The notes: generated from the sequence alone by a model not told the origin. Positions 1-4,393 are shown, numbered from the stretch's first letter. The stretch: 4,393 bases of DNA from a virus (IMGVR_UViG_2579778784_000011); one strand, 5' to 3'. Numbers and translations: made by a program.

Positions 1-1734
1 GCACGCAACGCTGAAGCCGCCTCTCAGAGCGCAGCGGCAGCAAAGAAATCAGAAACAGCAGCGGCATCGTCCAGGAATGCGGCGAAAACATCAGAGACGA
101 ATGCAGGTAACAGCGCGAAAGCGGCAGCTTCTTCAAAAACAGCCGCACAAAACGCAGCAACAGCGGCAGAACGTTCAGAGACAAATGCCCGTGCGTCAGA
201 AGAAGCCTCCGCAGACAGTGAAGAGGCTTCCCGCCGTAATGCAGAGTCAGCCGCTGAAAATGCCGGAGTCGCCACCACAAAAGCGCGGGAGGCCGCAGCA
301 GACGCAACAAAGGCCGGGCAGAAAAAGGATGAGGCTCTGTCGGCAGCGACACGGGCTGAAAAGGCGGCAGACCGCGCAGAAGTCGCAGCGGAAGTGACTG
401 CAGAGCCCTATGCGAATATAGTGCCGCCGCTGCCTGATGTGTGGATACCGTTTAACGATTCACTGGATATGATTGCGGGTTTTTCTCCGGGCTATAAAAA
501 AATAGCTATTGGTGACGATGTGGTTCAGGTCGCCAGTGATAAACAGGTTAATTTCAGTCGCGCATCAACGGCAACATATATCAACAAATCTGGCGAACTG
601 AAAACGGCGGAAATTAATGAGCCGCGATTTGAGTGTGATGGCCTGCTTATTGAGGGACAAAGAACGAACTACATGCTCAATTCGGAAAGTCCAGCCAGCT
701 GGGGGAAGTCATCAAACATGGATGTGCCCGAAACCGGGACGGATAGTTTTGGTTTTACTTATGGAAAGTTTGTCTGCAACGATTCTCTGGTTGGGCAAAC
801 TTCGGCTATTAATATGGCATCAATTGCTGCAACAAAGTCAGTTGATGTCTCAGGCGATAACAAGTACGTGACAACCTCATGCCGTTTTAAAACAGAACGA
901 CAGGTAAGGTTACGTATACGGTTTGATAAGTATGATGGTAGTGCAACAACTTTTCTTGGCGATGCGTACATTGATACGCAAACGCTTGAAATTAATATGA
1001 CAGGTGGTGCTGCCGGCAGAATTACGGCACGAGTCAGGAAGGATAAGACCACAGGCTGGATTTTTGCAGAGGCAACGATTCAGGCAATTGATGGTGAGTT
1101 AAAAATAGGCTCTCAGATACAGTATTCTCCTGAGCAGGGTGGGGCAACAGTATCTGGTGACTATATTTATCTTGCCACCCCACAAGTAGAGAATGGGCCG
1201 TGTGTATCATCATTTATTATTTCAGGAGGCAGCGCAACGACAAGAGCCAGTGATTTGGTTAGTATCCCCACCAGAAATAATCTTTATAAGTTACCATTTA
1301 CTTTTTTACTTGAGATTCATAAAAACTGGGATATTGCACCAAACGCCGCACCCCGCGTGTGGGATATAGCAGCAGCCAATACCGGGCAATTAGCAATTGC
1401 AGCAATCAACAGAGGTAGTGGTAAGTTATATATGAGTCTGTCAAACCCTTCAGGCTCGTATGTTAATAGCGCAGCGACAGATGTATTTGCAGAGAAAACC
1501 ACATTTGGATGTATTGCAAAAGCTGATGGTCACTTTCATGTGGTGACAAATGGTAAAGCGGTTAATGAAGTTTATTGTGAATATAATGGCGTGACCGCTG
1601 ATAAAAATATCCGATTTGGAGGGCAGACGAATACTGGAGAACGACATCTGTTTGGCCATATTCGCAATTTCCGCATATGGCATAAAGAAAAGCAATTGCA
1701 GCAATCAACAGAGGTAGTGGTAAGTTATATATGA
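1..1734 (+). CDS. side tail fibre protein (Stf-like), 5'-partial at window edge; 3' end frameshifted by a tandem duplication
   Basis: Frame 1 is open from nt 1 with no stop until 1732-1734, so the gene enters the window in progress and the GTG at 394 in the ORF track is internal. The first ~130 codons are an Ala/Ser/Thr/Glu/Lys-rich low-complexity shaft (e.g. AAKTSETNAGNSAKAAASSKTAAQNAATAAERSETNARASEEA), as in lambdoid Stf-type side tail fibres. A less GC-rich C-terminal region follows. The last 14 codons before the stop lie in copy 2 of the 299-bp duplication and are read out of phase. Confidence 0.8.
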   Translation, partial: ARNAEAASQSAAAAKKSETAAASSRNAAKTSETNAGNSAKAAASSKTAAQNAATAAERSETNARASEEASADSEEASRRNAESAAENAGVATTKAREAAADATKAGQKKDEALSAATRAEKAADRAEVAAEVTAEPYANIVPPLPDVWIPFNDSLDMIAGFSPGYKKIAIGDDVVQVASDKQVNFSRASTATYINKSGELKTAEINEPRFECDGLLIEGQRTNYMLNSESPASWGKSSNMDVPETGTDSFGFTYGKFVCNDSLVGQTSAINMASIAATKSVDVSGDNKYVTTSCRFKTERQVRLRIRFDKYDGSATTFLGDAYIDTQTLEINMTGGAAGRITARVRKDKTTGWIFAEATIQAIDGELKIGSQIQYSPEQGGATVSGDYIYLATPQVENGPCVSSFIISGGSATTRASDLVSIPTRNNLYKLPFTFLLEIHKNWDIAPNAAPRVWDIAAANTGQLAIAAINRGSGKLYMSLSNPSGSYVNSAATDVFAEKTTFGCIAKADGHFHVVTNGKAVNEVYCEYNGVTADKNIRFGGQTNTGERHLFGHIRNFRIWHKEKQLQQSTEVVVSYI

Positions 1735-1989
1735 GTCTGTCAAACCCTTCAGGCTCGTATGTTAATAGCGCAGCGACAGATGTATTTGCAGAGAAAACCA
1801 CATTTGGATGTATTGCAAAAGCTGATGGTCACTTTCATGTGGTGACAAATGGTAAAGCGGTTAATGAAGTTTATTGTGAATATAATGGCGTGACCGCTGA
1901 TAAAAATATCCGATTTGGAGGGCAGACGAATACTGGAGAACGACATCTGTTTGGCCATATTCGCAATTTCCGCATATGGCATAAAGAAT
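1392..1989. repeat. perfect direct tandem duplication, 2 x 299 bp (unit 1392-1689, junction base A at 1690, copy 1691-1988)
   Basis: Base-by-base comparison: 1392-1689 is identical to 1691-1988 over 298 bp. The first difference is 1690 (A) versus 1989 (T). Confidence 0.97.
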
Positions 1990-2021: not shown

Positions 2022-2296
2022 AAGATTTAACTTTGAAGTTTCATGACAAACTGCAGTTTAAGGCCTTCCTGTCATCTCTTGGCTGGGCGGAAGATGAAGA
2101 CCTCCAGAATAAACTGTTAGTTGATGAAATTGGTTTCACCTACACAGAAACAGGGGTAACAGAAGAGGGAGAACCTGTCTGTATCCGGAATGATGGTTAT
2201 TTTGTCAACATTCGCATTCTTGATGACTTGTTTGATGTTTCTGTATTCTCTGATTATGTCGTGGAGCTGGAAACACCGCTTCGGGAATGGAGCTGA
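2018..2296 (+). CDS. hypothetical small acidic protein (92 aa), translationally coupled to the tail fibre gene
   Basis: ATG at 2018 overlaps the native-phase tail fibre stop (ATGA), with AAGAGG a few nt upstream. 92 aa, strongly acidic (about 20 Asp/Glu versus 8 Lys/Arg). No motif recognised. Its 3' two-thirds lies inside the 271-bp duplication. Confidence 0.6.
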   Translation: MKDLTLKFHDKLQFKAFLSSLGWAEDEDLQNKLLVDEIGFTYTETGVTEEGEPVCIRNDGYFVNIRILDDLFDVSVFSDYVVELETPLREWS

Positions 2297-2618
2297 AAGG
2301 AGGAAATAATGGATATAAGCCCCTTACTTCATGCACTTTGTGCTGTATCTTGGCTGGGCGGAAGATGAAGACCTCCAGAATAAACTGTTAGTTGATGAAA
2401 TTGGTTTCACCTACACAGAAACAGGGGTAACAGAAGAGGGAGAACCTGTCTGTATCCGGAATGATGGTTATTTTGTCAACATTCGCATTCTTGATGACTT
2501 GTTTGATGTTTCTGTATTCTCTGATTATGTCGTGGAGCTGGAAACACCGCTTCGGGAATGGAGCTGAAAGGAGGAAATAATGGATATAAGCCCCTTACTT
2601 CATGCACTTTGTGCTGTG
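2077..2618. repeat. perfect direct tandem duplication, 2 x 271 bp (unit 2077-2346, junction base A at 2347, copy 2348-2617)
   Basis: Base-by-base comparison: 2077-2346 is identical to 2348-2617 over 270 bp. Position 2347 is A where the base after copy 2 (2618) is G. Confidence 0.97.
2331..2567 (+). CDS. chimeric duplicate ORF created by the 271-bp duplication; probably not an independent gene
   Basis: MHFVLY, from the start region of the downstream gene, is fused in frame to residues 21-92 of the 2018-2296 product. No Shine-Dalgarno precedes its ATG. The strong RBS+ATG at 2297-2311 instead opens a 19-codon ORF ending at 2363-2365. Confidence 0.3.
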   Translation: MHFVLYLGWAEDEDLQNKLLVDEIGFTYTETGVTEEGEPVCIRNDGYFVNIRILDDLFDVSVFSDYVVELETPLREWS

Positions 2619-2868
2619 GCTGCGCAGATACTGGTTGGTCTTTTTTACCGGAAACTGGGCTTACGGAGCGATAGCCGGTTGTACGTTCTTCATTGCGCGT
2701 GAACATACCCAGGCAGAATATCGCTGGATTGAAATGTTCGGGCATGGCAAGCGAATGAATATGCCGTGGTGGGGCGGTTTTGATCCGCGTGCTTGGGATG
2801 TGGCAAGCCTGATGGATTTTGCTGTGCCGGTGGTGGCGTGTCTGCTGATCTGGATGTTGATCCGTTAA
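2602..2868 (+). CDS. hypothetical small membrane protein (88 aa, two predicted transmembrane segments); start uncertain
   Basis: Open frame with enterobacterial-like codon choice (CTG, GTG, CCG, GCG frequent). Two hydrophobic stretches long enough to span a membrane (WLVFFTGNWAYGAIAGCTFFIA and VASLMDFAVPVVACLLIWMLI), with Arg-Arg before the first. No Shine-Dalgarno before ATG 2602; a strong AAGGAGG-N5-ATG lies at 2568-2582 in a different frame. Confidence 0.55.
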   Translation: MHFVLWLRRYWLVFFTGNWAYGAIAGCTFFIAREHTQAEYRWIEMFGHGKRMNMPWWGGFDPRAWDVASLMDFAVPVVACLLIWMLIR

Positions 2869-2919
2869 ATATAAAAAGTAAAAAGCCGCAGTAACTTGTC
2901 ATGATAGGATACTGCGGCT
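2869..2919 (-). terminator. candidate intrinsic terminator for dinI (hairpin plus U-tract on the minus strand), possibly bidirectional
   Basis: Inverted repeat AGCCGCAGTA (2884-2893) / TACTGCGGCT (2910-2919): a 10-bp stem with a 16-nt loop. On the minus strand the stem is followed by UUUUACUUUUUAUAU (complement of 2869-2883), about 65 nt past the dinI stop. The loop is long for a canonical terminator. Confidence 0.45.
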
Positions 2920-2985
2920 GGCTGGTTAACTTTCGATAGTGCGAGTATTGAATGATTTCCAGCCGTTACTGATTTTACGTGCTAA

Positions 2986-3234
2986 TTAGTGAACAAACCA
3001 CTCGTCAGCAGACTCCCAGGTATCTTTCAGAGTTTCCTGAACAAAAGTTTTAGCTGAATCTTTATCGGCGGTGCGCGTAACAGAAAGGCCATCGTTGCTG
3101 GTGGCTTTTACGATCACCTCTACATCGTCATAACGTTTACTGATGCGTCGGGTTAATTCTTCCTTTAACGCATCCACAGCACCGTTTGGCATTTTAGTCA
3201 TTTTTTCTTTGGCTATGCAGATCTCAATACGCAT
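2986..3234 (-). CDS. dinI: DinI-family DNA-damage-inducible protein (82 aa)
   Basis: The translation [82 protein letters not shown] matches my memory of E. coli DinI at many positions (MRIE..IAK, GA.DAL, EL.RRI, LSV, QET, TWESAD.WFV). It is preceded by an AGAGGG Shine-Dalgarno and two LexA boxes. Not verified by search. Confidence 0.9.
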
Positions 3235-3249
3235 AAAAGTCCCTCTATA

Positions 3250-3265
3250 CTGTGTTTGTATACAG
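3250..3265 (-). promoter_or_regulatory. LexA box (SOS operator), promoter-proximal, overlapping the likely transcription start of dinI
   Basis: CTGTGTTTGTATACAG on the + strand matches the CTGT-N8-ACAG core of the enterobacterial LexA consensus TACTGTATATATATACAGTA, with flanking TA...TG. It lies 16-31 nt upstream of the dinI ATG. Confidence 0.75.
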
Positions 3266-3270
3266 TGTTA

Positions 3271-3299
3271 TTTTTAACTGTATGGATAAACAGTGTCAA
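3271..3299 (-). promoter_or_regulatory. candidate sigma70 promoter of dinI (-35 TTGACA at 3294-3299, -10 TAAAAA/AAAAAT near 3270-3276, minus-strand sense)
   Basis: Minus-strand sequence is cTTGACA-ctgtttatccatacagt-TAAAAAt: a perfect -35 hexamer, a 17-18 bp spacer and an A/T-rich -10 (4/6 match to TATAAT). The -35 hexamer overlaps the integrase stop codon (3296-3298). Confidence 0.5.
3278..3293 (-). promoter_or_regulatory. second LexA box, occupying the -35/-10 spacer of the dinI promoter
   Basis: CTGTATGGATAAACAG (CTGT-N8-ACAG), 12 bp from the first box and directly abutting the TTGACA -35 element. Confidence 0.75.
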
Positions 3300-4393
3300 G
3301 AGGTCTTATTTCTGCTCCTTTGGAGCTCTTCAAAACGATTATGTAAAGATTTCGGATACAGTTCGGTATATACCTGCCATAGCACGTTTAATGAACGATG
3401 CCCTGTAACCTGAGCGACTTCCTCAATACTAAAACCAGCCTCAAATAAGCGACTTGCCCCTTCTCTACGCAAATCATGGTATCGCAGATCTTTAATACCT
3501 AATTTGCTTCTTACCCTCTGAAATCCTGCAGTAACAGAAGTGCTGTTATATGGAAAAATGAATTCCGATTTTTTGGGCTGTCGTTGGACGATATCCCAGG
3601 CTTCCCCAAGCAAGGCTACTTTCATGTGGTTGCCTTCCTTTTTGCGTGGATCTTTCCTGTCTCTTACGAGTATAGATTTTTGTTCCTGGTCGAGATCTTC
3701 CCATCGTAACCGGCATACTTCTCCGATCCGCATACAGGACCACACAGAAAATTTGAGGATATCAACGAACGGAATTTTTGAGCATTTATGAGTAGATCGT
3801 TGTTGAAGGCCTTCAATGAGCATGTCCAGTTCATCAGATGCTGGTCTACGATTACGACGGTTTGATTTACCAATCAAACCAAGTTTAAGTAGATATGGGC
3901 GAGCGCTTTTCGCCGGGTTTGATGTGTAATTAATTCCGTATACAGGTTTGGCCGCATCCAGAACACTGCCAAGATAACTAACATCGTGGCTGACTGTTGC
4001 TGGACCTGCACCAGCGTTGTTTCTTAGCCTGCAATGTTCAATTACGTCATTTTCTGTCAGTTCAGATAGTTTGATCGCGGAGATGTCACTATCCATAAGC
4101 AGTTCCAGCACATATCTTTTAGTACGGCCTGCTTTACCTCCGGCATTTGGGTCATTTAAATATTTGTGTAGTAAGTCACGGACTGTAAGTCCGTCAACTG
4201 CATTTGATGATGGAATGCCATATAGATCTAATTCCATCACTTTCTGTGTTCCCCATGTTTTGGCATGAGCATGTTTAGGGAATGTTTTGCTTTCCCTGTA
4301 AGTGATAACACCTTTTTCTTTGATAATCACATTACAGCGATAGCGTGGTGTGCCATCGGATTTTAGTCGTTTCTCTATGTTATAGTACGCCAT
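3296..4393 (-). CDS. int: phage integrase, tyrosine recombinase family (365 aa); ATG at window edge, apparently complete
   Basis: C-terminal catalytic-domain signature in order: Arg in MRIGEVCRLRWEDL, Lys in KKEGNHMKVAL, HDLRREGASRL (His-x-x-Arg), GHRSLNVLWQVYTEL (His/Trp and the presumptive catalytic Tyr). Size is typical of lambda-like integrases, and it sits next to a tail module and a moron region. Start codon is at 4391-4393; an upstream extension beyond the window cannot be excluded. Confidence 0.9.
   Translation of the reverse strand: MAYYNIEKRLKSDGTPRYRCNVIIKEKGVITYRESKTFPKHAHAKTWGTQKVMELDLYGIPSSNAVDGLTVRDLLHKYLNDPNAGGKAGRTKRYVLELLMDSDISAIKLSELTENDVIEHCRLRNNAGAGPATVSHDVSYLGSVLDAAKPVYGINYTSNPAKSARPYLLKLGLIGKSNRRNRRPASDELDMLIEGLQQRSTHKCSKIPFVDILKFSVWSCMRIGEVCRLRWEDLDQEQKSILVRDRKDPRKKEGNHMKVALLGEAWDIVQRQPKKSEFIFPYNSTSVTAGFQRVRSKLGIKDLRYHDLRREGASRLFEAGFSIEEVAQVTGHRSLNVLWQVYTELYPKSLHNRFEELQRSRNKTS

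Follow-up and report, generated by a model that had tools for sequence, protein, structure and literature searches.

Two perfect tandem duplications in a lambdoid prophage tail fibre module, most likely an error of sequence construction

The window, by which we mean the whole stretch of 4,393 nt that was analysed, is the right arm of a lambdoid prophage and carries the following reading frames.

1–1734, + strand: lambda Stf-like side tail fibre gene, its 3' 577 codons, made up of native residues 114–676 and 14 aberrant codons, with a stop at 1732–1734
1731–2021, + strand: orphan ORF of 96 aa in the native phase, carrying the native fibre C-terminus; its ATG overlaps the new stop (ATGA)
2018–2296, + strand: gene of 92 aa with no family match, intact here and translationally coupled to the fibre gene in the wild type
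2580–2868, + strand: third small gene, with a hydrophobic product of 95 aa in relatives, frameshifted here by an extra T in the run at 2637–2642
2986–3234, − strand: DinI-like gene, context on the dusA-prophage side
3296–4393, − strand: tyrosine integrase gene of the prophage that adjoins dusA in relatives; the window ends at its start codon

The integrase gene abuts dusA in relatives, and neither the 92-aa nor the 95-aa protein matched a Pfam or NCBIfam family. No Tfa-type assembly chaperone (Caudo_TAP) was found downstream of the fibre gene, and a hairpin at 2884–2919 was not called as a terminator by a simple scan. The fibre enters the window at residue 114, and domain calls were taken from the intact allele P0046 (686 aa), along which these regions were recognized.

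Residues 1–131: PF08400 N-terminal domain (230 bits)
Residues 118–248: Ala-rich stretch
Residues 297–543: match to the RcGTA head spike fibre (PDB 6tb9)
Residues 329–529: match to a GTA head-spike-fibre model
Residues 560–681: Concanavalin A-like/LamG_3 match (25.1 bits, just below the Pfam cut-off of 27.6)

The PF08400 domain on P0046 and the gene order J–lom–fibre in locus L002 place the gene among lambda Stf-like side tail fibres. Its 3' end is occupied by a first tandem duplication.

1392–1689, + strand: duplication 1, copy 1, 298 nt, encoding fibre residues 578–676 and thus most of the ConA-like/LamG_3 region
1690, + strand: duplication 1, joining base, a single untemplated A that differs from both flanks; A is found in 0 of 577 records at the in-register site (window position 1989)
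1691–1988, + strand: duplication 1, copy 2, same sequence as copy 1

Repeat search, TRF and direct string comparison agree that the two copies are identical at 298 of 298 positions with a period of 299 nt, and so bear out the coordinates, the copy identity and the period indivisible by three given in the first-pass annotation. That account was nonetheless incomplete, a second perfect duplication of the same unit–A–unit form, 88 nt downstream, having been missed. Junction 1 reads GAA/A/AGC (slashes mark the breakpoints), or in longer form ...CATAAAGAA-A-AGCAATTGC..., and the corresponding natural flanks are ..AATT/AGC and GAA/TTA. The breakpoints share no base, and there is accordingly no microhomology at the junction itself.

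The fibre frame runs in phase through copy 1, is shifted at junction 1 and continues as KQLQQSTEVVVSYI to the stop at 1732–1734, whereas the 96-aa ORF ends in ...IWHKELNDRQLKEVV, its stop overlapping the ATG of the next gene at 2018. The truncated fibre product and the orphan ORF were both predicted earlier and both are confirmed by the reading of the frames. The ATGA overlap at 1731–1734, which had been described as created by the junction, in fact lies within the repeated unit and occurs also at 1432–1435; the frame shift at junction 1 does no more than bring its TGA into phase. Similarly, the statement that the distal receptor-binding domain is altered goes too far, as only the last 10 of 686 residues (677–686), the tail end of the last domain of the fibre, are replaced.

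The second duplication spans 2077–2617 and has the layout 270 nt + A + 270 nt.

2077–2346, + strand: duplication 2, copy 1, comprising the 3' 220 nt of the 92-aa gene, a spacer and the first 38 nt of the third gene
2347, + strand: duplication 2, joining base, a single untemplated A; A is found at the in-register site in 0 of 1153 records
2348–2617, + strand: duplication 2, copy 2, same sequence as copy 1

Here too the three methods agree, with identity at 270 of 270 positions and a period of 271 nt. Junction 2 reads TGT/A/TCT, or ...GTGCTGT-A-TCTTGGCTG... in longer form, against natural flanks of ..ATC/TCT and TGT/GGC; its breakpoints likewise share no base, and the joining A matches neither flank. 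The strings that run across the two junctions are CATAAAGAAAAGCAATTGCAG and GTGCTGTATCTTGGCTGGG. After this duplication the 92-aa gene is still present once in intact form, and the third gene retains one complete start; if real, the duplication would have added a junk ORF and destroyed nothing. The third gene is already frameshifted in the lineage. The possibility that the joining bases are natural alleles was considered since one locus (L022) has an A in register with 2347, yet in the same sequence context E. coli records have none (0 of 577 at the first site and 0 of 1153 at the second). No restriction-site or Tn5-type end signature was seen by eye at any of the four duplication borders.

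When the duplications are collapsed, an ordinary allele appears. The fibre becomes P0046, an intact E. coli protein of 686 aa, at 100% identity and on 164 contigs; the single-copy allele ending ...KELNDRQLKEVV, for which the first-pass annotation had proposed a search, therefore exists, and all relatives examined are single-copy. The corresponding span measures ~3822 nt in eight E. coli chromosomes and in phage mEp460_4F5, compared with 3823 nt in the collapsed window. By contrast, the duplicated form was found nowhere else. Junctions 1 and 2 are absent from 5,426 complete E. coli genomes, in which junction-centred queries matched 578 and 1,150 genomes, always as two pieces that span exactly 298 or 270 nt and correspond to the end and the start of one unit. 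Both junctions are also absent from phage records, IMG/VR, JGI metagenomes and GTDB genomes (by exact scans in the last three), none of the 31 loci that were fetched has a duplication in the module, and no second carrier occurs among more than 1,100 E. coli records with the module. At the protein level, five reconstructed truncated full-length fibres, the 78- and 75-aa ORFs of junction 2 and further ORFs of 34 and 40 aa are all absent from ~15 billion proteins. The 96-aa ORF is on record (122 blocks) and could be taken as proof of a duplicated allele; this was rejected, the six loci examined (L003–L008) being single-copy prophage remnants in which the fibre gene is broken elsewhere.

One relative, L009, is a single-copy dusA-prophage contig from a human gut metagenome (project PRJNA231909) that differs from the collapsed window at 4 of 3823 positions (78, 995, 1133 and 1391), all at or to the left of 1391. 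Publications in which PRJNA231909 appears deal with type 1 diabetes and the gut microbiome in early life. L009 also has the rare extra T in the run at 2637–2642, the product of which is found on two ENA contigs only. Because this allele is common to L009, the frameshift of the third gene is natural, whereas the duplications are private to the window.

E. coli strains of B2 type carry two fibre modules that are ~99% identical, one in a remnant adjacent to sitABCD and one in the dusA prophage, and both are present in strains such as TUM13754. Positions 1–1391 of the window match the sit-adjacent copy L019 exactly (T78, A995, A1133, T1391), while the sequence from 2042 on matches the dusA copy L009 (C2042, +T2641, A2848/A2854/A2860, then the DinI-like and integrase genes). 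The last of the left-hand markers is the following.

1391, + strand: T, where most relatives have C; a rare natural allele of L019, found in 7 of 577 records, that abuts the left border of copy 1

As the left markers are of sit type and the right markers of dusA type, the switch lies between 1392 and 2041, the interval of duplication 1, and the window is a hybrid of two paralogous fibre loci. No complete genome combines T1391 with C2042, and among 583 records the best still has one mismatch. Junction 2 has no sites that are informative for haplotype. We also considered T1391 as a part of the event itself, the trace of an A-tailed fragment of the form T-X-A, and rejected this given that T1391 is a natural allele linked to the left haplotype; the same signature fails at duplication 2, where there is no matching T.

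One further feature concerns the period of duplication 1.

1402–1419, + strand: R1, GCAATCAACAGAGGTAGT, 10 nt inside the unit, found again at 1701–1718 in copy 2
2000–2017, + strand: R2, GCAATTAAAAGAGGTCGT, identical to R1 at 15 of 18 positions and including the ribosome-binding site of the next gene

In the single-copy sequence, R1 and R2 are spaced by exactly 299 nt. The first-pass annotation had noted the 15/18 match as a partial third copy that may be due to chance; the match is real and is not due to chance, as none of 5000 trials with random positions and lags reached 15/18 and lag 299 was the best of all lags around the borders. On this basis the period of duplication 1 looks homology-guided. 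Junction 1 is nonetheless located 10–11 nt to the left of the R1/R2 homology, outside the repeat, and attempts at a simple model, by slippage or annealing, did not arrive at the junction as observed. Duplication 2 has no homology at lag 271, the best match being 12/18 at lag 266.

With zero divergence between the copies, the alternative posed at the outset, either a very recent event or an artefact, stands, and we consider that the duplications are probably a by-product of sequence construction rather than a natural allele. Three overlapping pieces (up to 1689, 1392–2346 and from 2077 on) would have been set end to end with their overlaps of 298 and 270 nt unmerged, and the first two pieces would each have ended in one extra untemplated 3' A, giving the order piece 1 (to 1689) + A + piece 2 (1392–2346, 656 nt) + A + piece 3 (from 2077). 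Piece 1 has the sitABCD-adjacent haplotype and piece 3 that of the dusA prophage copy. Piece 2 has a single informative site, 2042, at which it disagrees with the sit copy L019; junction 1 would thus be a stitch between paralogues that are ~99% identical. We infer a technical cause, be it an assembly, scaffolding, finishing or editing step, in which the joining A may be a piece-end artefact (polymerase run-off or an A-tail base) or a filled one-base gap, and the exact technical route is a matter of conjecture.

Several observations point to this explanation. Two events lie 88 nt apart, share the same unusual unit–A–unit design and show zero divergence. Neither junction has a shared base and neither A is templated or a natural allele; collapsing both duplications returns ordinary natural sequence; and the junctions and their products are absent from all collections searched. 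The hybrid haplotype fits as well, and SNP 1391, which lies against the border of copy 1, agrees with the logic of an overlap bounded by a mismatch, whereas a biological switch gives no reason for this position. The middle piece is read- or amplicon-sized, and runs of N inside the fibre gene of drafts L005 and L006 show that short-read assemblies of this two-copy module do break up. Overlapping contigs that were left unmerged are known to yield mis-assemblies in the form of spurious duplications, adjacent and nearly identical (PMC2864568); the window has the marks of this class, in that identical copies are adjacent, their removal restores a known single-copy sequence and, at junction 1, the pieces are of different paralogue type (L019 on the left, L009 on the right).

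The resemblance to the duplicated overlapping contigs described by Kelley and Salzberg in 2010 (PMC2864568) is that near-identical neighbours mimic a very recent duplication, collapse restores a normal gene, and the contigs arise where two slightly different versions confuse the assembly, the two versions here being paralogous prophage copies. The differences are that the overlaps here are 100% identical, with differences at the flanking bases only, that they measure 270–300 bp in a bacterial prophage as opposed to kilobases in a diploid genome, and that the join is a single A instead of a run of Ns, the window being uninterrupted and free of N with no gap mark or contig boundary at either join. 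This last point counts against an artefact, and so does the 100% identity of the overlaps, which a normal assembler should merge. Duplications within one contig, moreover, are rarely mis-assemblies (Kelley and Salzberg, PMC2864568), and the imperfect repeat at a spacing of exactly 299 nt, close to the borders of duplication 1, would hardly be expected if the piece ends were arbitrary and suggests a molecular event guided by homology. An uncollapsed De Bruijn overlap (k − 1) was rejected as the specific cause, since it would require k = 299 at one join and k = 271 at the other, which is inconsistent.

The R1/R2 repeat supports the main rival, a genuine and very recent complex rearrangement, a double template switch of FoSTeS/MMBIR type within one replication or repair episode, which we regard as a tentative possibility. 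Synthesis would have reached 1689, where an A was added, resumed 298 nt further back and run on to 2346, where an A would again have been added before a backward jump of 270 nt, possibly while the sit-adjacent paralogue served as template for repair of the dusA prophage. Template-switch events typically leave junctions in clusters and short untemplated insertions, both present here, and the 299-nt period of duplication 1 is set by a microhomology that is imperfect but in register. A change of haplotype in the same interval would fit repair from a paralogue. The natural frameshift in the adjacent gene shows that the module is decaying, and side tail fibres are dispensable in lambda, of which the laboratory form has a frameshift in stf. 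The difficulties are that junction 1 lies 10–11 nt left of the microhomology and not within it, that in-register homology is entirely lacking for duplication 2 (12/18 at best, with a lag of 266 where 271 would be needed), that the same one-nucleotide A filler is needed twice, and that the paralogue-discriminating SNP at 1391 falls exactly at the border of copy 1. Perfect tandem repeats of 270–300 bp are furthermore unstable in RecA+ cells, and there is no second example among the more than 1,100 E. coli records with the module. In the comparison with FoSTeS/MMBIR, the clustered junctions, the duplication–normal–duplication layout, the short untemplated insertions and the microhomology near one junction are shared, whereas neither junction itself has microhomology, the sole homology is offset by 10–11 nt and the event is tiny. 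Stress-induced amplification in E. coli is an example of replication-based template switching (PMC3161906). The more specific form of this rearrangement, in which the duplications are real and the dusA fibre gene was repaired from the sitABCD-side paralogue in a natural gut E. coli by two switches back over ~300 nt, both leaving an untemplated A and the first guided in register by the 18-nt imperfect repeat, is in our view doubtful; it would be a bacterial miniature of the duplication–normal–duplication rearrangements of human genomic disorders.

The same design of both events, the natural character of the collapsed sequence and the absence of the junctions from every collection searched would also suit an in-silico edit or simulation, in which two natural segments were each repeated in tandem, one base apart, at arbitrary positions. 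We consider this quite improbable, given that arbitrary placement is unlikely to produce the exact 299-nt in-register homology (~1e-4, our own estimate) or a border beside the one SNP that separates the paralogues, and that it leaves the hybrid haplotype unexplained. Hardly credible is the idea of two independent genuine duplications retained as useful, either as padding for packaging or as a separately translated C-terminal fibre fragment. The ATGA overlap at 1731–1734 could allow reinitiation of the 96-aa product and restore coupling to the 92-aa gene, but the Shine–Dalgarno-like GAGG closest to that ATG is 16 nt upstream, a poor spacing, and both periods are out of frame. The added 570 bp amount to ~1.3% of a genome of ~43 kb (the length of a relative), too little for packaging, and the zero divergence and the lack of a second carrier anywhere searched equally speak against retention. 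Two known systems that vary receptor-binding genes were also compared. As in loci with a diversity-generating retroelement (DGR), a receptor-binding gene has two copies of a segment of ~100–300 bp at its 3' end, and adenine is involved in the only difference, but here the copies are identical and abutting and the domain is ConA-like/LamG_3-like, while DGR targets are typically C-type lectin folds; a DGR with VR and TR was rejected on the 100% identity of the copies and the absence of a reverse transcriptase gene in the window and within 3 kb in annotated relatives. An invertible tail-fibre segment of the Gin/Cin/Pin kind was rejected as well, the repeats being direct, with no flanking inverted arms and no invertase ORF in the window or in annotated relatives.

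The duplications, found in no related genome, are thus most likely an error of sequence construction and not new biology, and at best they would be a mutation that is private to the window, unstable and located in a dispensable prophage gene. If they are an artefact, their value is one of quality control, as the truncated fibre, the junk ORF and the orphan 96-aa "tail fibre protein" in the record would all be false, and the record, being a chimera of two prophages, would be misleading for analyses of host range or prophage typing. If they are real, the fibre would consist of residues 1–676 and a 14-residue aberrant tail, that is, 10 residues of a dispensable side tail fibre would be replaced, and ribosomes would halt 284 nt upstream of the 92-aa gene; the wild-type coupling through the ATGA at 2018–2021 would be lost, unless reinitiation at the 1731–1734 ATGA makes the 96-aa fragment. 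The locus would then be of interest solely as a case of template-switch repair between paralogous prophages caught in nature. Such a lesion would have a parallel in lambda, where stf, also encoding a lambdoid side tail fibre and also broken towards its 3' part, was reportedly described by Hendrix and Duda in 1992 as frameshifted in the laboratory phage. Lambda tolerates the disruption of stf because the central J fibre is enough for infection. The lambda lesion is a single-base frameshift that splits the gene; the lesion here is a 299-bp duplication that exchanges only the last 10 residues.

The tandem duplication at the 3' end of the fibre gene (1392-1988) is not the only one in the window. 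Another perfect tandem duplication occupies 2077-2617, where it extends from the 3' part of the 92-aa gene into the beginning of the third gene, and it has the same design, namely two 270-nt copies joined by a single A (period 271). An imperfect 18-nt direct repeat (1402-1419 versus 2000-2017, 15/18 identical) was also found, the copies of which lie at a distance of exactly 299 nt once each duplication is reduced to one unit. Both repeat copies contain GAGGT, and each is followed on its 3' side by ATGA, at 1432 and 2018, respectively.

The third gene, 95 aa long in relatives, is frameshifted by an extra T in the run at 2637-2642, which comprises six Ts in the window versus five in most relatives. 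The frameshift is a rare natural allele rather than a sequencing error, because the six-T allele, recorded on two contigs only, is also present in the gut-metagenome contig L009. Between this gene and dinI lies a hairpin (2884-2919) with 18-nt arms (AGCCGCAGTA...TACTGCGGCT), flanked on its left by an A-rich run, that is, a T-rich run on the minus strand. The hairpin was not called as a terminator by a simple scan, but it may be a terminator for the dinI/int strand.

The window combines two haplotypes. Positions 1-1391 carry that of the sitABCD-adjacent fibre module (L019), and 2042-4393 that of the dusA prophage (L009), a combination absent from complete E. coli genomes. On the left, the window begins partway through the fibre gene, in sequence belonging to the two-copy repeat, and its last three positions (4391-4393) coincide exactly with the start codon of the integrase, as though the sequence had been trimmed to a gene boundary, e.g. 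as a provirus. The two-copy fibre module breaks short-read assemblies, as seen in the E. coli drafts L005 and L006, both of which have the fibre gene interrupted by N-runs at the equivalent of window position ~1095-1101.

Annotation of the fibre is inconsistent, since RefSeq splits it in two in L019 and L020 (NZ_CP134362.1), whereas the same sequence elsewhere on record is one intact gene of 686-687 aa. The split annotations are as follows:

L019, 2311-4371: N-terminal 'pseudogene' and separate 'phage head spike fiber domain-containing protein'
L020, 1159-3222: the same two pieces

Mid-protein, fibre residues 297-543 (window about 550-1290) match PDB 6tb9 (E = 1.4e-9), the Rhodobacter gene transfer agent's head spike fibre, and also NCBIfam NF048003. 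The matching region is on a capsid spike in the gene transfer agent but on a side tail fibre in the lambdoid prophage, and one fold apparently serves both structures.
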